From positions 321,378 through 345,600 of the forward strand of contig WELB01000013.1 of NCBI GenBank assembly GCA_009602725.1: a stretch of DNA of 24,223 nucleotides, given 5' to 3'. This DNA is from Spirogloea muscicola. Lineage: Eukaryota. Shown here piece by piece: positions 2,475 through 24,223 of this stretch. Position numbers and translations under genes: made by a program. Every line of letters starts with the position of its first letter. Within the stretch, counting starts at the first letter, position 1. Below the pieces are notes generated by a model. It saw only the letters and a program-made list of their open reading frames with translations, did not search any database and was not told the DNA's origin.

Positions 2475-2910
2475 TGCGGACCTCGTTCAGTCTTTTGTGG
2501 GCTGACTTTCCCAGCCCTTGTCCCCTTTGGAAGAGCTGCTCCTCTCCTCTTTCGGGCTGGCCCTTTGCAGCCCCTCGCCGCCTGCGGAGCCACACCCGTT
2601 TGGACGAGCTTTCTTCTTCAGACCTTGTCCATTCCTTTGGGCTGGCCTCTCCCAGCCACCAGTTGACCTGGCCGCGCTTGCCTTTCTTCTTGGAACGAGC
2701 TTTTCTAATGGAGGAGGTAGGGCTAGCACAGCGCACTATCACAGCTGCCGACTGCTGTCGTAGGCTGCCATTCCTCAGGGCTGGCCTCTCCCAGCCACCA
2801 GTTTATCTGGCCGCGCTTGCCTTTCTGCTTCGGACGAGCTTCTCGAGTGGGGGAGGTGGGGCTAGCACAGGCGCACTAAATCACAGCTGCCGACTGCTGT
2901 CGTAGGCTGG
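2475..2910. repeat. Cluster of a modular dispersed repeat (GGGCTG-loop-CAGCCC hairpin family), including a ~140-bp tandem duplication
   Basis: Hairpin cores at 2499-2517, 2554-2573, 2640-2657 and 2779-2796. Segments ~2630-2768 and ~2769-2908 are tandem copies (GGGCTGGCCTCTCCCAGCCACCAGTT..CTGGCCGCGCTTGCCTTTCT ... GGGCTAGCACAG..GCGCACTA..TCACAGCTGCCGACTGCTGTCGTAGGCTG). 2617-2681 recurs almost identically at 13438-13502. Confidence 0.85.
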
Positions 2911-6306: not shown

Positions 6307-7849
6307 GGAAGAGAAGAGGAAGTCACAGATGGAGGCGAAGTAGTGCATACCTGCCCTGCATGGCTACTCCACTACTCCACCGAAGGCAAAGCGAAACCCC
6401 CGGCTTCAGAAGCTGTTGCCGAGCTCTTTACTTTAGAAAAGGGTTTGCAGGGTAATCTTGAGGCCTTCCTGCCCCCCGTGCCAGCTAGATTACTGATCAG
6501 CTTTGTCCCATTTGGCGGCTGAAAGGCTGCCCAATCCCTTGCACAGATATGGAAGTAAGGGACAAGCACTTGAATGTCTAGAATTCAGAACGTTTAGAAA
6601 TCAACTCTCTTGGAGCGCCACAGACAAACTTTGACGCTGCCATAGCCAGCCCAGCCAGACCCGTCAACAGTGGACCAGGAAAACAGTAAGTATACTAGTG
6701 TGAATTGGTGGTGTACCACTGTGGTAGTGTACCATACCATAAGCGGTACAATATATAAGCCTTATAAGCTCCCTGATCGCAAATGCGAGTTGCTCAAGCA
6801 ACCACAGTGGCACATGCCCCCCGGGAGATCGGGGACAGGCTGACAAATAATAGCAATATACAGCGCGACGCCTCAATGGGAGGCATTCGGGACCAAAATA
6901 AGGGGAGGAGAGAGTACTACTACCTGCACTCAGCACACAATGCAAGAATGCATTGGCAGGCGCGAAGATGCAATGCAGCGCACAAGTGCACGCTCGCATC
7001 TTGCTGGACGCCTGTCCATAGAGGAGCGCTGACACTGTAGAGCAGCCCTGAAACCTGGATGGGGCTCCCACTTTAGGGGAGCCAGAGAAGGGCGTCCCTG
7101 GGGACGTCTCAGATTCAGAGGCAGATATAGGAGAAGCTCATCGCAGGTGGACAGCCCCGAACTGTATCGCTACTGCGCCACTTGATCAGAGGCATCTGCA
7201 CCAAGCACCCTGCATAGCTACCCCGTCCGCCGAGCTCAGGCCCAACGCTCACATTGTGGGCCAAGAGGTCCACAGTGACAAGCCGAGAGCTTGCAGGCCA
7301 CAGCATGGCCTGGCGCCCCACTCACACCTCAGCCTCACACCTCTGATTCCACCAAGAGGAAAGCGCGGGGGGATAGGCTGCTGACAGCATCCTGAGCTGC
7401 TGTGTATGACCTTCCAAGCATTATCCATCCAGGCCTGCTCTGGCCTATGACGGCATCTCAGATTGCATGTTGAGGCCTCCAACAGGAATGTCGGCAACCG
7501 CAGAGGCCCAGTCGCTGCTACAGTGTCTGTGCAGCATTGTCAAGTGCTGGGCGCTTGTTGTACTGTCCTTGAGGCTCCTCTGATCAGGCTGGCTCTCGCC
7601 TCTGACCAGCCTTGGCGACAAAAGGAGCTTCCCTCCTCTGCAGATTCACAGCAACTTTTAAGGTTGTTACATTGCCAAAAGAATTGCGCCCACAGACATT
7701 GCTTGTCCAAGTGCTTGTTACCAACTATACAGTGCCAGCTTCTTGCAGGATCTGAATTATTAGTTGTGCTACTGACAAGCTCACAAGAGGTCCTCCACTC
7801 ATTGCCTGGTGATGGATTTGCCGAGGCAATACGGGCGTCTTGTGCAGAT

Positions 7850-10800
7850 TCAGTGACAAACCCTGCAACAGGAAGAAAATTTGAGAGCTAACCTGTGTAC
7901 TTGTCCACCAGCTTTGGTCGTTGTCTCGGCACCCTCCTCATCCACAGCAACCACGGTCTCCCTCATCGGCGCCTCAAGCACCACCTCTAAAGCGCCGTTT
8001 GTCGGAGTATGGCAGGTGGGCTCTTCACCAGCTGCATGTCCCCCGCTAACCGCAAGCTGCGGCAATGTGGAGCTCTCACTAGTGGAAAGATTATTGTGGC
8101 TTGGGAACCCTCGCAGACTTCCTCCAGAGCCCTTATGCCTTCCGTCCAGGGTATGAATTGATCTGTTCGTACTGCCACCAGTTCCAAACGTAGGGGTGAT
8201 GGGGAGTTGGAACCAAAAAGTGCTCCCTCCACCCGGTGTGCTGATCACGCCACACGAGCCTCCCTGCAATCAAGGAAAGTCCCTTTTGAGACAAAATGTC
8301 TTTTCCTCTTCATCTAGGCCATAAGTCAAAAGCTAGCATAATAAAGCAGGTCTTTCACGCAGAAGGTCTAAAATGACATTGTGCAATATCAACCTTGATA
8401 GAAGGTTCTACAAGGATACGCACCATCAACTCTACCAGCAGTTTGGCAATGGAGAGGCCCAAGCCTGTGCCTCCCCTCAGATTGCTCTTGTCAGGCGTCC
8501 CAAAGAAAGGCATGAAGACCTTTGCCTTGGCCTCCTCAGTCAACCCATCTCCTGTGTCAATGACGTCAAACCTCACACTGCTGGGCACCGCCACAGAAGC
8601 AACAAGTTCAACTGAGCCCGCTTTGGTGAACTTGAGAGCGTTGCCAATGAAGTTGACAAGAACCTGTACAAGATGCACAGCACACAAGCACACACGCAAC
8701 ACAAGATAAACTCACTGTCAGTCCATGCCTTGCACTTCCCAAGCTAAGCTGAGAGGCTGATGAGAGACACACAGCAGAAACACCAAATAAGCTAGGTGCA
8801 CATTTGATCATCAAGAAATGGGACTCCGTCTCATGTACTTCTTAAGATAACCTCAACTAGGTGAGGTTGTAGTTTCTGACTACACCTGCTGGAGGCGGTG
8901 CTTGTCACATGTAAAGTCAAGATCCTCAGTTCCTGAATTCAGGGTGTATGTCAGAGACACATGTTCCTTAGCTTTGACAGTCTCTATTGCTCTCTTCAAA
9001 ATTGGACCAAGTCGAGTGGTCGTCAAGACGACTCTTAGCTTTCCTCCCTCCAGCTTGCGGAGGTCAGACACATCCTCAACCACCTGACATGCCCAGACAT
9101 GGTTGAGAAGATGGCCTTGTAAAAATTACAATGTTGCTGTTGCTGTAATCTCGTGTACATCAGGTACCAGAATGCCAAACATGTCTGTGCATCCTTACAG
9201 GGTGGCTGTGCGATTACCTGCCAGATGCACGTATGGCAGACCCATAGCACCCATGACAAGACAAGCCGACCAGCAAATGCCAAACAGACAAAGAAGCAGA
9301 AAGGACCAAGGACTGCTCTAAACATGCCCACTTGTCAAAGTTCCTCAGTGAGTTGCACACCGTATTCATTACTCGACAACTCTCCTGAGCCTCCTTCAAT
9401 ATTTCAGAAACTGCTTTACAGGTTGCATAGACCTCCACCAATGGCGGCTGACTCCCATACTTTTCCTTGAGCAAAGAGCCAGCTTTCTTCAACCTCCTCA
9501 TCATGGAGCTGAGGGGCTCCTGCAACTCATGGCTTACGTAACTTATTACCAGCAGTGATACTTCTCTTGCCGTGGCTTCCGCTCTGCCACAAGAGTGGAA
9601 GTACAGTCAACGGCTTTGAATACAGAGTTGACACCTCAAGCATTCTACCAGAGCATGCACATTATTTGGCAGCCTGCATACTTGAGAGTGTATAGGCCAG
9701 AAAAACTGCCTCACTTGCATCCAAAGTTTCCTGACTGATCTCCAACAGATATCAGTGTGATGCATACTTAGTACTGCAGGCTCAGGTGATTGAGATGTTG
9801 CAAGCCTTTGACCAGCGACTTCTAAGCTTAGGACTACTTTCTCAGACAAGAGTAAGATGGACTCACGCTAAGCTGGCTCGAAGAAGATCAAAACGCTCTT
9901 CCACAAGGGTTAGCATAGATGCAAGTATTGGCCTGCCATGTAATGAGGAGTCAATGGTCAAGCTTCTGGACTAGGGAAACCGCTGAAAAGCTCCACCTGC
10001 AGGGTCTGAAAGTGCCAGGAAGCAGCTCACTTACCTGATGACAGCAAGGCCTTCTATGATTATTGTGACAATGATGATAGACGTAGTAACCCAGGTAATA
10101 ATTAGGAGGGTGTGCAGATGATCCTTTCCGCGACTTGCATACACTCCGACAAGTATATCCATCTCGTGCAGGAAGGTTACTTCAGAGAGAAGTATGTTGT
10201 TGACTTGTGCCGATATAGCAGCACTGCCACATTCCAATAACACAAGGCCAAGTATTGATCACGGCAGGAGCAAATGCAAGACAAGTTCTGGTGACAACAA
10301 GGAGCCTGACACGTCAAGACCGAAATCTAGGACTGAGGTTCCAGAAACCAGCTGAAGCAAAGGCTGGAAAGGTGGATCGAAGTGACCACCACATCAAAGC
10401 ACCTGGCAGGTGCTTAAAAGGATTGCTGAGATGTCCTTACAAAGGTACCTCACGGAACACACATAATACCTGGATATATTTTTCCGCTCAGCTGCAAGCA
10501 CGGTGAGGATGGACATTGCTGAAGTCACAAGCTCGTCAAACAGGGGCTGGAGATCTGCAGGAAACAAGGCCCTCAACGTTGAGCCCTGTGTCGGTAATGT
10601 GCAGGCAAATCACTGGAAGCGCCAGCATTGTGTCTTCATGAGCTCCATAGGACTTATGCAAGCTTCAGAATGCACTTCTATCCTCCCTACTTACCTTCTC
10701 ATAATACCTTCCACAACGGGCATCATTTGCACACAGGAATAAACCTCATGACTCGGTTCAGTGCAAGATATTAGAAAGAGTTCACATCAATAATGACTTG

Positions 10801-11530
10801 CATGAGATGTACAAACCTGCGAGGTAGTTACGTATCTCCTTATCAGGTGTGTGGGGTATGTGTACGTCATCTCTTTTCCGAATCAGGTCAGCCTGGCCCT
10901 TCTGAAATTTTGTCACGGCTGTTCGCAATTCGGCAATGTAAAAGGTAGCATTCTGTCCCCTCGATGCCAGCAATTGAAGAGCGAGCGCATCCTTCGAAAT
11001 CTGTAAGCCCCAGCATTGTTACTCTCACTTCTATGTATATCAATATCACAGCAATTCAAAGCCTTGAGACCAGTTGATAAATGCTGGGAATCTACAGGAC
11101 GCAATTATCAAAAGCAGAGCACAAGAGTTCCTTCTCACCTGCTGACACAACATCCGCTGGAGGCCAGCTTCATTGACGATTCGAGAGTCATCATACGAAC
11201 TATCTACCCAAACCTGGCCAATGATTTCCAAAGTGCACGATCAGTCAAGATTGGATTGCAAAGCTAGATACAGCTAGTACAGACTAACTTATGCAGTCTA
11301 GTATATTCAAGTGATAATACGCTACATGGAGGATTTTGGATCCCCCAAGAGGATATCTTGTATGCTGCAAGTCCTGGAGGTCAATATCACCTGAACAATA
11401 ATCTGGCCAGCTAGTGCCAGGAGCCCAACTATCAGCATGCAGGCAATGTAAGCGAAAGTCAGCTTCTTGACAAGTCTGGGGTTTTCAAGGCGTCCTGCTT
11501 TGTCGGATCCATCCTTCCAATCATATGCTC
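7850..11530 (-). CDS. Transmembrane sensor histidine kinase: TM1 - NarX/PilJ-like sensor - TM2 - HisKA - HATPase_c - low-complexity tail; spliced, >=10 exons; start codon and exact 3' end uncertain
   Basis: Minus-strand exons: 11530-11391 (KKLTFAYIACMLIVGLLALAGQIIVQ, TM1), 11213-11139 (VWVDSSYDDSRIVNEAGLQRMLCQQ), 11000-10817, 10554-10470, 10223-10035 (FLHEMDILVGVY..LLIITWVTTSIIIVTIIIEGLAVIR, TM2), 9932-9867, 9583-9361 (H-box SYVSHELQEPL), 9083-8886 (VEDVSDLRKLEGGKL..DKHRLQQ), 8663-8424 (N-box VLVNFIGNALKFT, G1 DVIDTGDGL, F-box VFMPFF, G2 GGTGLGLSI), 8263-7850 (GGSCGVISTPGGGSTFWFQLP + tail). Nine GT-AG introns with matching phases and no internal stops. Confidence 0.9.
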
Positions 11531-12618
11531 CTGCACAACATCAGCCGAGTGGTGCAGGGACCAGCTCTGAGCCTCACATTGTTGTGCATCTTTAGAGCCA
11601 AAAACAAGAGAGGCAAACAAATGCTGCAAATCGGATGCACTTTCTACATGTACATAACACATCTCAGTAAGTACACAGCCAGAAAATCTGGCAGACACTG
11701 CTCCACTAGTAATCTGTATTGTCAAAATTGCAGTTGGCTGAGATTCCAGCTATGTGTATCACAGAGAGCCGCCAGTGGACTCCCGAACATTCGCATCACA
11801 TGCCTGAGCAGTCCTGCTCGACTACTTGACATATTGGACCACCAATGACCTGCCTTGAACCCTGGCAATGACAATATGCTCATAAGACCAGTGCATGACC
11901 TCCTACAATCCAACTGCAGCGGCCACATCCTCATGCCTATACCTTGAGATTTGACAGACACTGATGGACACCCGGAAACATCAGCATACAGCGTATACTT
12001 GCTGAACTGAACCCTACTGGCAGTATGGCAGCCCAAAGTGACCGCACCCACCCGTCTGCCACCATCTACATGTCTAGGCTGGCATCACAAAAACATAGTT
12101 GCAAAAGGAACTCAGCCAGCGATGCCTCTTTCAGTCACACCTGACTACAGTGACCAGGATTGTTGAAACACATCCTAAGACTCTATATTGCTGTATAGAA
12201 CCTGTCGTCACAGATGACAGATACCAAGACATATGAACCCCTTGATACGCAAATATGGGGCCACGGCAAAGTACACACGCAATGAGAGAGAGCTCTTCAA
12301 GATGTTGGACACGCAGCTTCCAAACTGGTGGAGGATGGTGTCTGCTTCAGATGACATCGTCCACCCAGCTTCAGATGGGATGACAACCGTGACCAATCTT
12401 GTCGTACTGATGTCAGCCGGAGGAGAGGTCTTGAACCTCGGCTTCAACAACGTTCAAACAAGCTACTATAGCTAAGTCCCAACTTCTCCTGACCACCGCG
12501 CTCCGCAGACTGGTGTGCCAGCTGCACCATGAGCCGCGTAATCACGCGCTCACCTGAGGCGATTTGGCTGAAGGTCGGTACTCGGAGGACGTACTCCGAC
12601 GCTCCGCGACGGCCATAC

Positions 12619-12722
12619 CTCAGGCTACCATCCTCCGAGCTCGCAAACTCCTGGCTTGGCTTCCGCTGGAGGCCGCCTGCATGTGCGCTGTCGCCGTCCT
12701 TGTTGCCTCGTAGAGAGGGCAT
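12619..12722 (-). CDS. Candidate first coding exon of the histidine kinase gene (MPSLRGNKDGDSAHAGGLQRKPSQEFASSEDGSL..)
   Basis: ATG in a GCGCCATG context at 12722, downstream of a GC-rich leader, ending at a good donor AG|GTATGG. It is phase 2, whereas exon 11530 needs phase 1, so at least one intermediate exon in 11770-12520 is required. I could not fix that exon unambiguously. Confidence 0.4.
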
Positions 12723-12919
12723 GGCGCCCGCGTCAGGCGCGAGCCATCGGCAGCCGAGGAGCACGGCACGCGGGCTGCGCAGGGTGGGCGGCCAGCGGCA
12801 GCGCCGCCGCCCGGGGGGCTTGGAGGCAAGGGAGGCTGTGAGCAATGGCAGCGCCGCCGCTTCAAGCGGCGCCTCATCATCATCATTCGTGTGGGCCAGT
12901 CGTCACCCCCCTGCCTTTG

Positions 12920-14370
12920 TACATTCTTTTCTGGGCTGGCTTTTTCCAGCCCCTATCCTCAATGGGCGAGCCCTTCTCCCTGCGCACAGCCGCATCGCCG
13001 CTAGCTGGGTTGGCGGCTCCACCAAGTTGGCGGCGTGCTCTCCGACCGTCATCTTCAAGGCACCGGCTGCGAACCGTCCGTGGCCCCACAAACGTGCCGC
13101 TGGCCCCGCCAGATTAGCTCCGGGTCAAAGAAGTAAGCTCATCCAGGTGGCGAGGAGCTGTGAAAAGCTCCTCGCCACCTGGCCAGCCCGAAAAGATTGG
13201 AAAAGGTCCGAAGGTGCCAGTCAATGGAGATTCTCTTCATCTAAACAAAAAACAAAAAAAGGATCAAATCTCTTCCCAAAAGGGGGGCTGTAAAGAAGAA
13301 GTGAAATTTTCCGAAAGGGAGGGGTGCTGTGAAAATGGAAGTGGCTTTCCAAATAGGTGCAAGGGCGAAAACGGGATGAGCTCTTCCAAAGGAGAAGCCA
13401 GCCCGAAAGGAGTCTCAGTCCTTAGCACTCCGACTCCTTCAGACCTTGTCCATTCTTTTGGGCTGGCCTCTCCCAGCCACCAGTTAATCTGGCCGCGCTT
13501 GCTTCTTCAGCCCGAAAGGAGTCAACGAGGTCCAAAGGGGCCGAAAAGCGGTGGATGAGATTAGCAAGCAAGGACCATGTAGGATAATCTATTATAACCT
13601 CTAGTTAGTCGCCGCAAGTCAGAATTACTAGCCGCCGGGAAGAAAGTGGCTCTCCCTAAGGGGCGAGTGGAAACAGCTCTTTGGAGTACTTCATTTGGGC
13701 TGGCCTCTCACAGCCACCAGTTAATTTGGCAGCGCTTTTCTTTTGGAAAGAAAGAAAGTGGCTCTCCCAAGGGGGCAAGGGCTGTGAATAGCCAGCCAAA
13801 AAAGAGCTACAAGGTCCGCAGGGGCCAAGAAGCGCGTTTTCATAATATCCCGGTAAGATATTCACTAAGTAACCTCTAGTGAGAAGCCGCAAATCAGAAT
13901 GAAAAACACAAAAGAAAGACTAGCAGCTGGAAAGCAATCCCCCTGACGAAAGCCGGAGGCTGCAGCTAGAGCACGGCCAGCACGCAGATGCACGGCGTGG
14001 GCCATAGACCGCTGGAGTGATAAGGACAGGCGCATGCGAGACAGCTGCGCTAGCGAGCCAGCGGTGTTGAAGTTGGTCGCTCGCCTCGCCTCCGGGACAC
14101 AGCACGTCGCGCAGGCAGGGCCAACAGGCTGGAAAAGAGAAGAAGAGCTCTTCCAAAGGAGGAGCTCACTTCTTCAAAGGGAATGCTTTCTGGCGGCTAG
14201 CCTTTCTGACTTGTGGCTATTAACTAGAGGTCACTAGGTGAATATCCTACAAGATCCTTGCTTAGTCATGTCTTATAGCGCTTTTCGGCCCCTTTGGACC
14301 TTGTCAATTTATTTCGGGCTGGCTGTTCACAGCCCGCGCCCCCTTTGAGAGAGCCACTTTCTCTTCCAAA
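12920..14370. repeat. Second cluster of the same modular repeat family, in both orientations; possible non-autonomous transposon remnants
   Basis: Hairpin cores at 12933-12952, 13460-13478, 13697-13715, 13779-13797 and 14315-14336. A longer module (CAGCC..AAGGTCC..AGGGGCC..AAGCG..AACCTCTAGT..GCC(G/A)CAAGTCAGAA..CTAGC) occurs at ~13508-13640 and ~13790-13940, and inverted at ~14180-14325. Confidence 0.8.
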
Positions 14371-15526
14371 TATTGAGCTCCCGCCACATTCTTCCAGTGA
14401 AAGTGGCTTCTCCCAAAAAAGAAGGAATGGAGTTTGTATTGATTGGTGGAGGGCCTGAGTAGTCCAAGTGCAAAGGCAAGCACATGACAGATGTAAATCA
14501 CCTGCTGCTAAGCTGACCCGCTCAGTACCCATGAGTCAGCACATAGAGGTCGCTAAGCGATGCCCGAATACCGGACGGCTAATGACAGTAGTGGAGGTGT
14601 TTACGAAGGTCCGAAGAGAAAGCGCGACCATATTTACTGGTGGCAGTGAGAGCTCTTTTTCTTGCTGGGTCCGGATGCGCCGCCAGCCGCAGGGCCGCCG
14701 CCGCTACATGTGGCGGCAAGGTGGTCAGGCCGCAGCCCCCAATGCCGTACCGCGCGAGCGGCGGCCGTCCCGTGGACGGACCACGGGGGTCACCCTATGG
14801 AATCCCCCTCCCGGCAGCCGCAGAAGCCTCGCCGCCGCGGCGGCTCGAACCCTCTCGGCCGCCCGAAGGTATCTATCTGTCTTATCGACGGTACGATCAG
14901 CCACTCCGACTCCGCGCCGCTTGGAACCCACGCCCCAGCCGACGAGACGCAACGGCGTCTCGCTCGACGCTGCCGTTTTCGTCCAAGGCACGTCGCCGTG
15001 GCCTCCCGCCTTCAGCTCCCGCGGGCCCGCCATTCCCCGTCGCTTCGAATCTCCACCGCCGTCGACATCGGCCCGGCTCCGCCGTCAGCCGCACTATACC
15101 GCGGGCGGGCGACCTGGCCTTTGCCGCACCCGGCGCAGGACCTCGCGCCTGCGTTGATCACCTTTGGCGCTACCACTGGAGTGGCCTTGTTTGTTAGCTT
15201 TGCAGCGGATAACCAGTTTCCAGGAGGACATGAGCAGCCTGCCAAATTGCTGCGTTGCGCCGTAGGGCCGAACACTCCTAGGTCGGGCCCCCAGCGTCGA
15301 GACTTCATTGTTACCGCTGGCAGCGATGCAGTCTTCACGCTCCTCAGGTGGCCAAGTTGCAGCAAGCACCGGCAGTCGGAGGCGGCGATGATGGCTGCCG
15401 GTCACTACGACCGGCCTCTGCGGCTTTCCAACACTAAGCGACAGCATTAGACTCCACTTGCGAGTGGAAAACCGACGCGTCTTGCTCATCGCTGCGGCGG
15501 TATGATTGTAGCCTGAAAGCGTGAGC

Positions 15527-18500
15527 ATGGGCACACAGAGCTCCCTTAGGAATTTCTTTGCAGCCAGAAGGGCGAAGGATGAAGTCAGCAGCGGCGAGGG
15601 TACAGGAGCCGGCCAGGATGTCGGCGCCAGTCAGTCGCAGCTGTTGCAGCTTGAGAGCCCCTGTCTGACGACTGGCATACGCGTCTCTCCGGTGAGGAAG
15701 AGAAGGACATGCCTGGTGCCAAGGGTGAAAATTGTTCTTGACGAGGACAAGCTTGTCCTCAACGAGGAGAATGCTGAGGAGGTGCAAGAGAATGTCGATG
15801 AAGGCTTCAAAAGGCGTGTAGGAAACTCAGAGGATGACAGGCATGCAGTGGCCGCAGACGAGAAAAGGCAACGCCTTCTCTCAGCTTTGGGAGAAGACGA
15901 CAATAGCAAGAAGAGCGCCTGGACTGAAGCAAAGCAAAGGTTTGACTGGCTTCAGCCAGACAAGATTAGAGACGGCAAGGGTCGCCGGGCTAGCGATGAA
16001 GAATATGACTGGAGGACTGTACGAGTACCAAGCAGCCTCCTGGCAAGCATGAGTGCCTCACAGCGGCAGTACTGGGATACCAAGTGCCAGTACATGGATG
16101 TGGTGCTATTCTTCAAAGTGGTACACCCCCTCAACTCCGTAGGCAGACAGTACTTTCTTGTGCAGCGCTTTTCTTAAGGAGCAGGTTGTCCGCTTGACAC
16201 TCTCACACATCCTGCCATTGATCTCAGCTTTTACCCCAGCTGCACGGCACACTGCTGTGCTTGGAGCAATTGTTCAGAGCAATAACTAAAAATGCTCTAT
16301 TGTACAGGGGAAATTTTATGAGCTATATGAGATCGATGCAGAAATTGGACATAAGGAGATGGGCTGGAAGCTTACCGTGACTGGAGTTGGTAGATGCCGC
16401 CAGGTATTCTTAATACTTGCACGCCATTGTGCAGGGAGATACTTGACTGCGACTGTCTGCGCTCCAAGTGCTTGATTAACATTTATGCTGAGACCTGCAT
16501 CATCTTGAACACCTAAGTTTGTTCAGACAGCTGCAGCTTGAGATCACTGCCAGACTGAGATTCAGCAAGGTTGCAGGTCGGCGTTCCTGAGAGTGGCATT
16601 GATGAAGCTATTAGGAAATTGGTTGGTCTAGGGTACGTTCTCTGATTTAACGCTCTTACCCACTTCACACATCTGGTCTTTATACCAATGCAGGTACTTG
16701 AAGTACAAAGTCTTGGAATTACAATGCATTGATGGCACAGTGCATGCAGACATGCGTCCTGTTTCTTGTGATCTGCCATGAATGTGCACTTATGCGATGT
16801 GAGGTGACTGTAGGTACAAGGTGGGGCGAATGGAGCAAGTCGAGACTGCTGCTGAAGCCAAGGAGAGGCGTGGCAATGCAGCAGTCAGTATATCCGATGC
16901 CTCAAGTTCTTTGATGCAGAGCTTTCCAATACAATCTTGTCTCGCAGCTTCATATCATGTTGCTCGTCTGCTCGATACTCAAGATCCTGAGCCAGCTCAG
17001 GGTAGGTTGGGCTTGTGAATCTGTCAAGTGCTCTGGTCCCAAGGCGTGTTATTTGCTATTGGTACTGATATACATATATCTTTCTGCTAATTACCAAAGA
17101 GAGAGATAGGTACGTACATACTTTCTCATAAGTATATCTGTAAGCTGGTGTGTGCAGGTAGTAAAGCGAGCTCTTGTCAAGGTCTTCACACCAGCTACAG
17201 TGACTGACGATTTTGTGCGCCCTGAAGCTTATCACCTGCTGGCCGTTAAGGAGGTACTGCAGTGCAGACACCAAGCAGATACCTTTCTTTGATGGGTATA
17301 TTAGAAACATGAATCTGTGGGCTTTGGTGTTGATGAAGCTTCGGCTCAGGTTTGAATGTACGCTAAAGATACTCCGACAATTGTGACGCTTGCTATGCTG
17401 AAGATCACCTTTGCATGGGCTTTGCAGAGTCCAAGTCCAACTGCAGGAGGAAGTCACTCTGTAGAGTTGGGTGAAGTCATGTACGGGTTTGCCTTCGTTG
17501 ATGCTGCAGCTGGAAATTTCTTCCTGGGGACCATCAAGGATGATGAGTCACGAGGAGCATTAGGAGCACTTCTGCAGCAGATTAATCCCCAAGAGGTCTT
17601 GTTTGAGAAGGGATGTAAGTGCCATCAATCTCCATCTTACAACTTTGCCCTCTCCTACGAGGAAGTGCTACTGCAGTAGTATAGGACTTTTGCTCTTGCT
17701 GCACGGGTCTCTCTCTACAACATAGTAGCCTCCTGTTTGACTTCGTACGCAATATTCTTACAGGTCTCTCTCCAGAGACAAAGCGAGCTCTAGCGAGGGC
17801 GTCAGGCCCAGGTACCACCACCTTCATGCAATGTTGGGACCATGTACCTCTATCTATTGTGTCGTCAAGCATATGCTTGGTGTTTTCAAGAGGAGTTGAT
17901 GCAGCTTTGCCTGAGGCAGGGCCATTGATCCATATTGCCTGCCTCATGGGCTGCAATAATGACTACAAGGCAACTATTTGCTCTTGCAGGACTTCTACCT
18001 CTCCAGCTGACGCCTCTTCTGCCAACTTCTGAATTCATAGACGCTCAAGAGACGCTCCGACGAATACACAAGAACTCGTACTTTCATGGCTCCACTAATA
18101 GCTTTGACTTAGACGACCTCCGAGAGCAAATTCTTCAGGGAAACATAAGCTGTGAGGTGGTAGCCAGCGCGCTTGGTGCCGTTATCTCGCATCTCCAAAG
18201 AATGAAGGTGTTGTGCATTCCAAGAGAAAGCAGTCCTCTCTTTCCCTGAAGGATCCTATGTCATTGCAAGCTACAGCATTTTTTTGATTGTTTGCCTATT
18301 TGCGCTTCGCTTTATCATCAGCTGATTTGGAATAGGAAGTAATGATATACAATGACATGGCCAAAAGTCAGGGTGAAAGTTTCAGATATCCAACTCACCT
18401 GCTTCGCTACTTTGTCATGTGGCAGTTTGACATTGAGCTCCTGCGACATGGAGATCTCCGTCGCTACGAAGTCTATGCTGGATCTCTGCGCCTGGATGGC

Positions 18501-21500
18501 CAGACCTTAGTCAACCTGGAGCTCCTGGGAAATTCGGCAGATCATGGCAAAGCAGGTGCCTACTGCTCTGTATTCTTGTGGTAGCAATGCCATCTCGTGC
18601 AACGTCCATGACTTGCAAGTACGTTTGCCTTATGCGGGCAAGGTTACCGCTTCTTGAGAGAACCTAGGCCTACTTAAATGGCCAACATTGCCCTCCCTGA
18701 AAAGCGCAAGCTTTTGAAGATGTCATCGTGTTCCTGCACTGTATGCCAGTAGACTCCAACACCAATACCTATTGGCTGCTACTGCAGGCACATTGCTTGG
18801 CCATCTTGATACCTGCGTCACACCTGCTGGCAAACGCCTGATTCGACGATGGATCTGCCACCCCTTGCGATCCATCACTGCAATAGAGGCTAGACTAGAT
18901 GCGGTGGACGTGCTCCTGGCGGATTTCCAGTGGGCCACAGAGACGCGGTCAAAGTTGAGACGACTACCCGATCTCGAGAGATCACTAGGTAGAATTCGAA
19001 GGATAGCAGCCGGGTTGACTGTTGAGGGTGCATCTATGGGGGTGGCTTCCAAACTTCACGAGCAGCGGGTGAGTCACCTAAAGACGCACACTTTGAATTA
19101 GGCGGATGAAAACGAGATATGGTCAGGCGGCTGAGTCTTGACGACAAGTTGTACATCTACTCACAGCATACGTGCTGACTGGCGGGCTGTGCATGTCTTT
19201 GACTTAAAAATTAAGATGTTTGCTGCACAGATGAGGACGTTCGGCAGTACAGTCCGAGCAATATCAGACACCTTGTTTGTCCTAATGACGGTGCGTAAGG
19301 AGGTAGAACGTGGACGAGCAGACAAAAGATCGGCACTTTTGGAGTCCTTAACAAGCATCCCGCTGAAGGAAAGAGCAGCTTGCGGAGTGCTTGATGAGAT
19401 TGAGGGCATTCTTGAGCTCAAGCCGTCAAGCAAGACTACCACTCAGTGGTCTCTACGTGTTGAGGTGCAGATGCTCAACCCTTCTGTGCACACCAGTGAA
19501 GTAGATTATTCTGACTGCTTGCAACTTGTTATGCCAACTCAATTAACAGGCTCTTAGTGGGTCCACCTCAGAGTGCCATGTCTTGATAATTTCTCACTTT
19601 GCAGGAAGGTGGACGTGTGGAAGCAGAGGAGGAGTGGGAGTGGGAGGCCCGAGCACTCAGCGAGCTCTTAGTCCTATTCAACGGGCACATGCGAGCCTGG
19701 ACAGAGATTGCACAAGCAGCCACTCAAATTGATGTCTTGATAGCCTTTGGTCAAGCAGCCCGAGCCTCAGCTGGAGCATGCTGCAGGCCCACTTTTGTAG
19801 CCTGTCAGGCTTCGGAGGGAGGGTTGTCAGCCTCCGGCTGCCTGCTCAACCTTCAAGGCTTGTGGCATCCATATGCTGTTGGCGGCGGGGGTGGAGCTGT
19901 TGTTCCAAACGATGTGGTGTTGGGGCCCACCTTGGATGGCACCACAGCCCCAAGGGCCATGCTGCTGACTGGGCCAAACATGGGCGGCAAGTCGACCTTG
20001 CTAAGAGCAACCTGCGTGGCAGTGATCATGGCCCAGGTGCTTGCATTCCCACAGCCAGCCTTACTCTGAACAACTCATGTATGTGCAATCAGTGTGTGCA
20101 CATCATACACACATGATGGCTCTTTTGCCGCAAGGTGCATGAGGTTGCTTATCACTAGTTCAGTATCCGACTATGAAGCGTTGCATGAAAGTTGTTTGTC
20201 TTTGCACAGTTGGGGTGCTATGTACCAGCAGCGAGGTGCACGATGTCGGTCGTGGATACCATCTTCACGCGCTTGGGAGCCAGCGACCGGATCATGTCTG
20301 GAGAAAGTGAGTAAGGAGGAAGAGGAGTGCCTCCAAGAGTTAGACTAGTGATATCTGATGGCAGGTTCTTGGGCACAAGTCTGGCAATATTTACAATACA
20401 TTTCTGAGGCGTCACAAGAAGTTCTACCACATGGAGCATCATTGGAAATCGTTTCTTGCAAATTTCAACTCTGGTGGCATGAAGAGGTGTACTTCAGTGT
20501 CTCTGCAGGTACCTTCATGGTGGAGTGTAACGAGGCTGCCTCAGTGTTGCGACATGCAACCCCCCAGTCCTTGGTCATCCTTGATGAGCTAGGACGGGGA
20601 ACTTCCACCTTTGACGGCTATGCAATAGCATATGCGGTATGCTTTTGCATAGAGAAGAAACCTCAGGGTGTTATGGCGCATAGTTATGTATCTGCCAGGG
20701 TGACAAGATCAGACGATTGCTTACATGGACATCTTGCTGGCGGCTTTGTTGGCTCTTATGTCTTACAATCTTGCTTGTGGTGGACGAATAGCAATTAAGA
20801 GCTTGTGCTTCTTGACTAACATCACCAAGCATTGTCTAACAAGTGTGAGACCAAGATGATGGCTAACCATTACTGAGTGCATTCAGTCAGACATAAGCAT
20901 CATATAGCTGACATTGGGCTGAGCTTCTTCTGTGAAGGTGTTGAAGCACCTCACTGAGACCCTGGACTGCCGGCTCCTGTTTGCCACACACTACCACCCG
21001 CTCAACGACGAGTTTGCCAAGTCGACTCGAGTGAAACTTCTCCACATGGCATCCGCCTTGAGGGGCCCAACAGGCGACCAAGAAGTCGTCTTGGAAGAGC
21101 ACCAGGCCCCTGCAAAAGCCACAATGGAGATGGACGGTGGAATACTGCAGCCAGTTGAGGGGCTCTCAAGGGATCAGCTTGTCTTCTTGTATAAGTTGAG
21201 AGAGGGTCCTTGCCCAAAGAGCTACGGCCTCCACGTCGCGTTGTTGGCCGGCATCCCAGAAAGTGTGGTGCACGCAGCATCCCGCTCAGCCTCCAGGATG
21301 TGCACAACAATGGGTCCTACACATGGTAATGCGCACTGGCAAGAGGCAGGGGTCCTTGGAGAAGGGATTGCAAGCACTGGTGCGTTTGGCAATAGTGGGG
21401 TGTATACCCACTGGTTCTCGCAGCTGTTGGTCGCCCAAGGAGCGGCTCATGAATGGCACAGCAAGGTGCTGTCTGTTTGGAAGGAGTTGCAGGTGACAGA

Positions 21501-21516
21501 CCTCACGAGTCCATGA
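15527..21516 (+). CDS. MSH7: DNA mismatch repair protein MSH7 (MutS-gamma subunit, plant-specific MSH6 paralogue), 15 exons, ~1081 aa
   Basis: Exons 15527-16120, 16308-16403, 16577-16632, 16814-16883, 17158-17253, 17428-17614, 17764-17811, 17990-18207, 18426-18555, 18788-19068, 19231-19464, 19605-20036, 20210-20306, 20509-20636, 20938-21516, all GT-AG and in phase. N-terminal PIP box QSSLRNFF. Mismatch motif [15 protein letters not shown]7-type MSASQRQYW and [18 protein letters not shown]. Walker [61 protein letters not shown]. The lever/clamp region is short, as expected for MSH7 rather than MSH6. Confidence 0.95.
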
Positions 21517-21699: not shown

Positions 21700-21955
21700 C
21701 CTTTCATACCTCTGCATGCTGTAGTTGCCTAATCAAGTGATTGGCAGCTTGATGACGTACATTCCATTAATTGATTATGGTGAGGTCAAGCAGGCACGCA
21801 TTCCAGGTCAACCGATGGGCATCTTGGCAAGTGCTGGGTGCATTGTTCACTATACCTATAAGCTTCAGCTTCTAATGCAGCCTGCTGAAGAACCCATGTA
21901 GACCATAAAAAAGCGGAGCAAGGCCAGTAACAACACAAGAAGTCCTCAAATAGGG

Positions 21956-24223
21956 TCAACTTCTAATGGCAGCATACCCGCCAGCTTCTAACTCCCTAGC
22001 TAATGATTTGTCGCCAGTCTTCACTATCCTCCCGCCCTCCTGGAGGTACACACTGACACTTACAATCACTGCCAAATCACCTGTTCTGAGGACTCGCAGA
22101 GTGCCATCGCTACTTCTGACATGGCATTCTTTGGACACATAACACGAGGTCATGAGACTTTCACGACATTACCAATCAGGGCAATCCGGAATGTGAAAGA
22201 CTTCTCGTAGTATTCAGATACTAGGGAGCCAGAGAAAGCAGCAGGTGGACATGCTCTGAGAAGGAATGGCCAATGCTCACCATGATGTGCACAAAATTGG
22301 GCGTGATGTAATCAAGCAACCGTTGATAGTGTGTGATCATCAACACAGCCTTCTCGGGCTTCTTGAGCCCATTCACAGCCCCGGCAACGTCCCTGAGGGC
22401 GTCAATGTCAAGACCAGAGTCAATCTCGTCGAGGATGGCCAGGTCGGCATCAAGGACCTGCACCAACGTATAGCTAACATTATTAGCGCCACTAGTACTC
22501 ACACCCATCAAGGGCAGTCACGGTTGACTCAATCTTTCGACCCGTGGTGCTGAATGTCAAGCACGTGAGACACCCCTATACCAGTGCTACGTACACGGAC
22601 ATGCTCAAAAGACCTTGGACCTTGAAACTTCTGCAGCTGTTCATCACTTACTCTGTCAGTCACTCAGTACCTAGAATAAGCAATTGCCTCCTGATAAGCA
22701 TGACCAATGTAGCCGGGAGCTGCTAGCTTCCTGAGAGCTGGAGGCCTGATTTGAGGTGATATGAAGCACAAGTCTACATCCAGCTCAGGAAACCATACCT
22801 AGGGGTAAAGCTACGAAGTGAGCTTGGTATTAAACAAGTAGTCAACAATCACCTTCTCCATCAAAGTGATAAAGGCCCTGCTTGCGATGTGGGACGATTT
22901 GGCAGTGACTTGCGAAATGGCAGCACTGCGTGGCTAGAATGGCAACTCACGGCCAATTGAAGTATCTCATTGCGCTTCTTCTCGCCCCCGCTGAAGCCCT
23001 CATTGACGTTCCGCGACAGGAAGCTGATGTCCATCTTCAGCTCGTCCAGCTTGGGCGTCAGGAATGCATAAAACTGGCCGGCAATGGAACAGCAAGCCAA
23101 TCAGCAAGCAGGCAGTGGGAGCCGGCTCAGCAGAGTGACTCCATAAGCTGTTGCTTGCCATGATTGACATGCTTGTGGCAAACGGCAACACTGAAGTAGA
23201 TACTGCATAGGGAACCGGACTGGGAGGGGTTCTGCCAGAGGCTTTGGAGGAGGGCTTCAAGATGGAATGGGGCCTGAGAGTCTCTTAGCACTCACAGAGT
23301 AAGAACCGTGACCAGATGCATCAAGAGCCCACAAGGCGGCGGCAACGGCAGCAGAGGCAGACAGCTGCGCACCTCCAGGGGGTCGAGCTCAGGCTGGCCG
23401 AGGGCGGCGCGGCGGGCGTTGGCGGCGAGGCGCAAGAAGTCGGTGTTGGACACGCCGGGGACCTCGACGGGCGACTGGAAGGAGAGGAAGAGGCCGGCGT
23501 GCGAGCGCTCCTCAGGCTCCAGCTCGAAGAGGTCGCGGCCCTTGTACAGCGCAGTGCCGCCTGTGACCTCGTAGTCCGGGTGGCCCACCAGCACCTGCGC
23601 CAAGGTGGCCATGGCCATGGCCAGGCCGTCCTACCACTGTGAGTATCGCCCGAAGCCCGTTCTGCCAGCAAGAGCAGCTCCGGCAGCACATTGCAGCTGC
23701 TCTACTGGGACCGGCCGAGGCCCGCAAGCGGCGAGTGCACCGGCGCGCCACCAGAGAGCGGCAGGCCGAGCGGCGCGCACCTTGGACAGGGTGCTCTTGC
23801 CGGACCCGTTCTTCCCCATGATCGCGTGAACCTGCCCACACAAGCGGCGGCACGTTAGATGCGTCCGGACAACGACGTCCAGAGCTGCTAACGCAACATC
23901 ACGTTGGCCTCAAACAAAGCCCCGTACAGTCGGTTGGGCGGGCTGCCGAACCCAGAAGGCTACGAGACGGCGTGCAGGCGCGCGGGGCCAGCACAGCCAA
24001 GCGCAGCGGCTGGCCGCCTGGAGGCTGACATTGCCACTATCCACACCATCTGGATGTAAACCCAGCAGCCCCCACCTCGCCCTCGCGGATGAGGAGGTCG
24101 ACGCCGGCCAGGATCTCGCGGCCCCCGTCGGCAATGGCCGCCGTCAGGCCCCGCACCTCCAGCAGCGGCGTCGCCGCCGCCGCCGCCGCCGTCTCCCCAG
24201 CCGGCGCTGCCGCCGCCGCGGCC
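21956..24223 (-). CDS. sufC: Plastid Fe-S cluster assembly ATPase SufC (ABCI6/NAP7); 5' end (start and transit peptide) lies beyond the window
   Basis: Minus exons: >24223-24076 ([31 protein letters not shown]), 23831-23781 ([17 protein letters not shown], Walker A), 23594-23373 ([28 protein letters not shown]), 23073-22951 ([21 protein letters not shown]), 22457-22281 ([27 protein letters not shown]), 22039-21956 ([27 protein letters not shown]). All introns GT-AG, phase 0. Confidence 0.97.

Follow-up and report, generated by a model that had tools for sequence, protein, structure and literature searches.

A putative nitrate-sensing, receiver-less histidine kinase of likely bacterial ancestry in the alga Spirogloea muscicola

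Gene model and domain architecture

The window analyzed here is a stretch of 24,223 nucleotides (nt) from Spirogloea muscicola (assembly GCA_009602725.1, contig WELB01000013.1, positions 321,378 to 345,600) that carries, together with genes displaying MutS, DUF2358, and ABC ATPase matches, an intron-rich gene for a membrane histidine kinase on its minus strand. The main point, missed by an earlier first-pass annotation of this DNA, is a nitrate-binding motif in the sensor of the kinase, which points to nitrate sensing as its likely function. The gene model was built from the minus strand in three reading frames with testing of GT/AG junctions. Its 3' exon was placed via P0001, a protein retrieved by a protein search with exon 6 and whose first 647 residues are matched by the preceding exons. 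The conceptual translation of the resulting 12 exons equals P0001 letter for letter. Features of the gene and protein are as follows (window positions; aa, amino acids; TM, transmembrane).

12722-7445, minus: whole coding span, 12 exons, 11 GT-AG introns, 710 aa (P0001)
12722-12554, minus: exon 1, beyond the range annotated earlier
11530-11391, minus: exon 2
11213-11139, minus: exon 3
11000-10817, minus: exon 4
10554-10470, minus: exon 5
10223-10035, minus: exon 6
9932-9867, minus: exon 7
9583-9361, minus: exon 8
9083-8886, minus: exon 9
8663-8424, minus: exon 10
8263-7893, minus: exon 11
7637-7445, minus: exon 12
beginning in exon 1 (12554-12722), minus: hydrophilic N-terminal extension, 79 aa, predicted cytosolic
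11391-11462, minus: TM helix 1, aa 80-103, from hydropathy; basic residues precede it; predicted signal anchor
10484-11201, minus: PilJ/NarX-type four-helix sensor, aa 108-213, from Pfam and structure model
11142-11177, minus: N-box/P-box VNEAGLQRMLCQ, aa 116-127, encoded by exon 3; G120 and R123 form the G-x-x-R pair
10944-10952, minus: sequon N145-A-T, helix 1-2 loop, position kept across the algal family
10472-10480, minus: sequon N215-I-S, helix 3-4 loop, weakly conserved
10037-10111, minus: TM helix 2, aa 256-280, from hydropathy; runs into a HAMP-less helical linker
9042-9549, minus: HisKA-type DHp, aa 315-391, Pfam PF00512, E 4.8e-4, below cut-off
9531-9529, minus: phospho-acceptor His321
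8195-8906, minus: HATPase_c, aa 437-546, Pfam E 2e-25
7448-8194, minus: Ser/Gly-rich C-terminal tail, aa 547-710, in the receiver's place; spans intron 11 and includes exon 12

The first-pass annotation had counted at least nine GT-AG introns; nine lie wholly inside 7850-11530, and two more (12553-11531 and 7892-7638) bring the total to 11 (102-1023 nt, all GT-AG) and make the gene longer than previously given. In one run, guessed and not recorded to be RNA, contigs join the exons across all 11 introns, each of which has GT..AG ends and its modelled length. The P0001 cluster comprises three EukProt proteins of S. muscicola that are 94-95% identical and that may reflect a genome triplication. 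Among the coding differences listed, silent changes accounted for 10 of 18 in the sensor-kinase core compared to 29% expected (p 0.017). The kinase gene is real, nuclear, and under constraint. Bacterial contamination, already dismissed in the earlier annotation, was rejected because of the 11 spliced introns, the three diverged gene copies, and the relatives in algae.

The annotated TM-sensor-TM-HisKA-HATPase layout was borne out by hydropathy and Pfam. The PilJ match (PF13675) passed its cut-off (E 2.9e-8, 34.2 bits vs 26.6), and the four introns reported for the sensor region were recovered as introns 2-5, with introns 3 and 4 interrupting the domain and introns 2 and 5 at its edges. A structure model of residues 71-302 displayed four long helices (mean predicted local distance difference test score, pLDDT, 92), in which TM helix 1 continues into helix 1, helix 4 continues into TM helix 2 and the linker, and both sequons sit in loops at the membrane-distal ends. 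His321 lies 39 aa beyond the Arg-Pro that ends TM helix 2, with an acidic residue after it, and none of the N, G1, F, and G2 boxes is disrupted. The HATPase varies at 4/110 positions among the three Spirogloea copies. The best NCBIfam matches of the kinase core were the hybrid-type TorS and BarA, all below their cut-offs. P0001 had no Pfam match at E<=1 to a receiver domain, HisKA_3, HAMP, CHASE, PAS, GAF, or MASE1, nor to an S-helix/GAF-like region, only 39 aa lying between TM helix 2 and the His. Likewise, at this threshold the sensor matched none of the input domains of known plant kinases (CHASE, ethylene-binding/GAF, PAS, MASE1, bilin).

Two minor observations concern the gene structure and its copies. 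The third Spirogloea copy, P0003, has lost the conserved sequon described below and has Ser for Gly at one site of its ATP-binding N box, changes that hint at divergence among the three copies. The fragments P0012 and P0100 both stop at the residue aligned to Ala303, the codon of which is split by intron 7 (window 9866), and this shared end point suggests that intron 7 is common to the three sequences. P0012 is continuous across the sites of introns 3-6, suggesting intron gain or loss between lineages.

Nitrate-binding motif of the sensor

The nitrate N-box of the Pseudomonas aeruginosa chemoreceptor McpN is [IVL]-[ND]-x-A-G-x-Q-R-M-L-[ST]-Q, with contacts at G58, A59, R61, and M62; the R61A change abolishes binding, and PilJ domains without the N-box bind no nitrate (PMC6381276). 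G-x-x-R is the binding pair in nitrate-sensing kinases (PMC8199190). P0001 matches 11/12 N-box positions, its residues G120, L121, R123, and M124 aligning with the four McpN contacts, of which the Gly, Arg, and Met are retained, and the full 12/12 box was found in the algal relatives P0004, P0005, and P0078 and in Closterium. The G-x-x-R pair is present in 9/9 rows of alignment A2 that cover the site. Variation among the Spirogloea copies spares the motif, with 0/39 variable positions in residues 104-142 and 16/113 in the remaining sensor.

The top Protein Data Bank (PDB) match of the single sequence was McpN, albeit weak (E 0.1), and a profile of the algal sensors matched PilJ (E 1e-7) and McpN (E 1e-4). 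The top Foldseek row for the P0001 model was NarQ (E 2.7e-3), and those for the model of a paralogue were McpN followed by NarQ (E above 0.001). A VIA search with the paralogue's model alone gave PilJ (Z 16.7), McpN (13.2), and NarQ (12.7), in the range usual for helical bundles.

A positionally conserved sequon

Both N-x-S/T sequons annotated in the extracytoplasmic loop are present (N145 and N215), but their number proves little because at least two sequons occurred in 2854/20000 shuffles (14%) of the 170-aa loop. Position is more informative: a sequon lies 22-36 residues past the N-box Asn in 10/10 algal-type representatives compared to 14/186 bacterial sensors (after exclusion of seven algal rows that were near-duplicates or partial) and in 12/13 full-length algal proteins. 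The middle residue, the choice of Ser or Thr, and the exact offset all vary. This pattern fits selection for glycosylation in the lumen of the endoplasmic reticulum (ER), and the kinase is likely glycosylated. The proposed integration into the secretory pathway was supported in part, the conserved position fitting such passage and the sequon count being at chance level.

Algal family and distribution

Exhaustive searching with the sensor yielded 1433 matches, and among the best 150, which were examined, the closest named ones were from Mesotaenium (two genes, by gene ids) and Klebsormidium nitens (GAQ86381.1); Closterium members were found by a profile search. Separate phylogenies of sensor and kinase, as the earlier annotation had proposed, recovered the algal-type proteins as one clade in both. 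For the sensor, 17 algal-type sequences formed a clade in a 200-row tree (FastTree support 1.0), and the clade was recovered in two smaller model-based trees, a quick one with a Shimodaira-Hasegawa-like approximate likelihood ratio (SH-aLRT) support of 100 and another with 100/100, the bootstrap of which had not converged. The kinase halves of eight algal proteins likewise grouped (SH-aLRT 99) with an inner order compatible with the sensor tree; this tree held 60 rows, namely the eight algal proteins, the top 50 sensor-linked kinases, and two other bacterial kinases, and was built without plant kinases. The other relatives recovered in the trees and among the best 150 sensor matches look bacterial.

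No land-plant, chlorophyte, red-algal, glaucophyte, or other eukaryotic relative was among the named matches listed. The absence of land-plant matches carries little weight because the profile search (7994 candidates scored) missed four members of its own alignment (P0006, P0007, P0008, and P0153), and the 1283 lower-ranked matches of the sensor search may include more distant relatives from eukaryotes. A word-based search with the P0001 sensor matched only P0001 itself among 2510 candidates, and an Atlas search with the Klebsormidium protein returned generic prokaryotic kinase clusters.

A receiver was absent from 7/7 algal relatives scanned. P0001 and Mesotaenium P0007 keep the His and the N, G1, F, and G2 boxes at ~46% identity; among the seven full-length rows of A2, the G2 box is degenerate in five and the His is missing in three, with G-x-x-R kept in all. 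The family therefore can persist without kinase activity, and an early split appears to separate an intact-motif branch (P0001 and P0007) from members with degenerate motifs. As a separate observation, P0004, P0005, P0006, P0008, P0153, and P0154 combine degenerate G2 boxes, three of them without the phospho-acceptor His, with a retained G-x-x-R and are candidate nitrate-binding pseudokinases.

Bacterial relatives

The strict N-box was used to collect the bacterial set, 80 named loci spread over 11 phyla, some on short contigs and with no control loci. Their neighbor families included NirB, NirD, a NasA/NasC-like reductase, NarK, NtrB, and a NarL-like regulator, and nirB, nirD, nasA, narK, or ntrB lay within the fetched flanks at 47/80 loci (Bacteroidota 41/48, Planctomycetota 4/7, Cyanobacteriota 0/6). 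The N-box sensor is joined to a HisKA kinase at 5/6 cyanobacterial loci. A side observation is that the filamentous cyanobacteria at loci L002, L025, L031, L061, and L073 carry such kinases, their fetched flanks being free of nitrate genes, and represent an uncharacterized candidate nitrate-sensing system.

The HAMP-less sensor-HisKA layout of the algal protein also occurs in bacteria, with an Arg-Pro-to-His spacing of 42 in 13/29 measured bacterial rows and of 39 in 10/10 measured algal rows. This shared layout favors transfer of a whole bacterial gene followed by loss of the receiver, as we infer from the sequences. The old acquisition from bacteria that had been proposed is supported by the algal clade and by the bacterial appearance of the other relatives recovered, and the gene was likely inherited from bacteria and taken up long ago, by a horizontal or an endosymbiotic route (see below). 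The likeness to PilJ-domain kinases of Bacteroidetes and cyanobacteria, named in the earlier annotation, stands for the PilJ-family sensor. Its Bacteroidetes part is limited to the sensor because the reviewed nitrate-sensing kinases use HisKA_3 (PMC8199190) and P0001 uses HisKA.

Proposed function and alternative explanations

In the proposed mechanism, TM helix 1 would anchor the kinase in the ER so that the sensor faces the lumen and N145 becomes glycosylated there; the protein would then travel to the cell surface to sense external nitrate. By analogy with McpN and NarQ, the sensor dimer would hold one nitrate on its twofold axis, gripped by the Arg123 side chain and the Gly120 backbone of each subunit. 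A shift of helix 1 would then pass through TM helix 2 and the continuous HAMP-less helix to the DHp and change autophosphorylation of His321. Because the kinase lacks a receiver of its own, the phosphate is proposed to pass in trans, either to an independent receiver protein or to a hybrid kinase that serves as partner in the algal phosphorelay, and the output would most plausibly tune nitrate uptake and assimilation. The probability that P0001 is a receiver-less membrane histidine kinase, domesticated from bacteria, that senses nitrate with this mechanism and phosphorelay output is put at roughly 0.58.

Several results weigh against this interpretation. The strict N-box fails at position 11, where Cys126 replaces Ser/Thr, the branch of P0001 (1.01-1.04) is among the longest in its clade, and PilJ, a chemoreceptor that does not sense nitrate, outscores McpN by whole-profile score. 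Neither structure model gave a Foldseek match at E 0.001 or better, and the four-helix bundle is a common fold. Bacteroidota supply most of the link to nitrate genes (41/48 loci), which is found at 1/13 loci of the HisKA class (assigned by pattern), to which the algal protein belongs, and was counted at strict-N-box loci without a control scan. The offset window for the positional sequon was set after viewing the algal rows, which are related by descent, and P0003 has lost this sequon. A protein of nitrate-sensor ancestry might have diverged to sense another small anion (nitrite or other) or no ligand and be retained for a different signal, and the broken N-box, the long branch, the scarcity of nitrate genes beside HisKA-class loci, and the replacement in P0001 of a Gly-Asn stretch past helix 2 that is conserved in its relatives would all agree with such a change, as would the failure of PilJ domains without an N-box to bind nitrate (PMC6381276). 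This seems unlikely given that G-x-x-R and the adjoining contact positions are intact, none of the 39 positions around the motif varies among the three copies, and the Leu and Glu at its free positions also occur in the bacterial-type rows P0167 and P0129. Slightly less probable again is that nitrate is bound but the signal leaves without a phosphorelay, through a scaffold or through heterodimers with the kinase-degenerate paralogues. Receiver-less ethylene receptors, which act via Raf-like kinases, provide a model for such signaling, and the lack of a receiver, the long Ser-rich tail, a Glu four residues past the His where Thr or Asn is usual, and the relatives that kept G-x-x-R while losing the His (3/7) or an intact G2 box (5/7) are consistent with it. 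Against it stand the conservation of the His and all four boxes between P0001 and P0007 at ~46% identity and the near invariance of the HATPase among the three copies.

A further alternative bears on the origin only, namely that the gene came from the cyanobacterial ancestor of the plastid or that a bacterial sensor was fused to a resident algal hybrid-kinase core, in place of the transfer of one complete gene from a soil bacterium. We regard this as the less probable origin, although a serious competitor. It draws on the cyanobacterial N-box HisKA kinases (5/6 loci) and on an approximately unbiased (AU) test that did not reject a grouping of algae with cyanobacteria (p-AU 0.248), the only grouping put to that test; moreover, the best matches of the kinase core, TorS and BarA, belong to the hybrid type, which is used by plants as well, and plant kinases were not part of the kinase tree. 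The best tree nonetheless keeps the algae apart from cyanobacteria, no tree resolved the donor lineage, and no chlorophyte, red-algal, or glaucophyte protein was among the named matches listed. The whole layout with near-equal spacing is found in bacteria, and bacterial hybrid kinases outscored Arabidopsis ETR1 in the PDB search, the ETR1 chain being an ATP-binding fragment only.

Comparison with known systems

The ligand-binding domain of McpN (PDB 6GCV) is, like the algal domain as modelled, a PilJ-family four-helix sensor held between two TM helices (PMC6381276), with an N-box likeness of 11/12 and aligned contact residues. McpN is a chemoreceptor whereas the algal protein ends in a histidine kinase, and the latter differs further by the Cys at box position 11, a longer domain with sequons, and its eukaryotic, intron-bearing gene. 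NarX, NarQ, and the Bacteroidetes kinases share the G-x-x-R P-box and the TM-sensor-TM-kinase order with the algal protein, and the Cytophagales class resembles it further in lacking HAMP and GAF-like domains (PMC8199190). All reviewed nitrate-sensing kinases have HisKA_3 (PMC8199190); compared to NarX/NarQ, the algal DHp is HisKA, there is no adjacent NarL-type regulator, and the box is of the McpN pattern. The uncharacterized bacterial N-box HisKA hybrid kinases of Planctomycetota, Cyanobacteriota, Chloroflexota, and other phyla have the same sensor, HAMP-less link (42 vs 39 aa), and kinase class, with a best identity of 36% over 257 columns in the kinase half. Most of these retain a receiver, and an Hpt domain is frequent, whereas the algal family has neither and has gained the N-terminal extension and the conserved sequon.

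Horizontally acquired NarX-like kinases in streptophytes are already in print as a proposal. Kabbara et al. described NarX-like sensors in KniteHK29, KniteHK44, SmoelHK12, SmoelHK15, PpateHK38, and a Physarum kinase and proposed horizontal acquisition for nitrate sensing in Klebsormidium, Selaginella, Physcomitrella, and Physarum (PMC6324907). KniteHK29, KniteHK44, SmoelHK12, and SmoelHK15 are drawn with two receivers, in contrast to the algal protein, and PpateHK38 and PpolyHK39 are drawn without receivers as in the algal protein (PMC6324907). These kinases have other accessions and, for the most part, another drawn layout than the algal family (PMC6324907); GAQ86381.1 was not found in the accessible text of the supplement (PMC6324907), and the Kabbara accessions were not among the named matches of the sensor and profile searches. 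The two groups may or may not share an origin. The plant nitrate sensors NRT1.1/NPF6.3, a transporter, and NLP7, a transcription factor (PMC12502328), likely share their signal with the algal protein and are unrelated to it, the algal protein being, unlike either, a predicted surface receptor kinase. PilJ, NarX, and nitrate go unmentioned in the accessible main text of a 2026 survey of zygnematophyte kinases (PMC13730384). In the openly accessible literature, a scope that excludes subscription papers such as the Spirogloea genome paper, the search turned up neither a paper on this family nor any test of a NarX-like kinase from plants, and no description of a receiver-less N-box family with active and degenerate branches and a conserved sequon.

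Implications for nitrate sensing in streptophytes

These results turn a passing NarX-like proposal (PMC6324907) into a defined and testable family with named predicted binding residues, and cultured algae, Mesotaenium and Closterium among them, carry it. If nitrate is bound, the closest algal relatives of land plants would sense external nitrate via a receptor kinase unrelated to both known plant nitrate sensors. Such a finding would inform how nutrient sensing took shape when plants moved onto land, and which parts of it land plants gave up. It would also provide a eukaryote-adapted nitrate-sensing module usable in plant biosensors and clearly exemplify the gain of a conserved glycosylation site by a bacterial periplasmic domain after transfer. 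More tentatively, and at somewhat less than even odds, streptophyte algae may possess a third, cell-surface class of nitrate receptor, distinct from NRT1.1 and NLP7, a bacterial N-box kinase that was taken up before the split of Klebsormidium and Zygnematophyceae, gained a glycosylation site suited to the secretory pathway, diverged into active and pseudokinase branches, became wired as a receiver-less kinase into the plant phosphorelay, and was lost in flowering plants.

Neighboring genes and repeats

MutS domains I, II, III, and V were identified in open reading frames of a plus-strand gene at ~15500-21516, the putative MSH7 gene of the earlier annotation. On the other flank of the kinase gene, where that annotation had placed an HBP5-like gene, lies a convergent gene with a DUF2358 match below threshold. 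One contig continues ~770 nt past the end of the kinase reading frame, as far as 6675, and meets the contig of the DUF2358 gene (window 6400-7637), so that the 3' ends of the two genes may overlap. High contig depth with loose ends was observed at 12914-12975. A dispersed repeat family with a 54-103 nt core and up to four copies was found at window 2629-2870 and 13182-14323. These repeat regions contain two pairs of inverted arms; the second set lies upstream of the kinase gene and also of the MutS gene, and the repeats and arms together possibly represent a small non-autonomous transposon. Finally, an ABC ATPase gene interrupted by introns (ABC_tran, E 2e-5) lies on the minus strand at ~21950-24200 and, judging by its motifs, presumably resembles plastid SufC.

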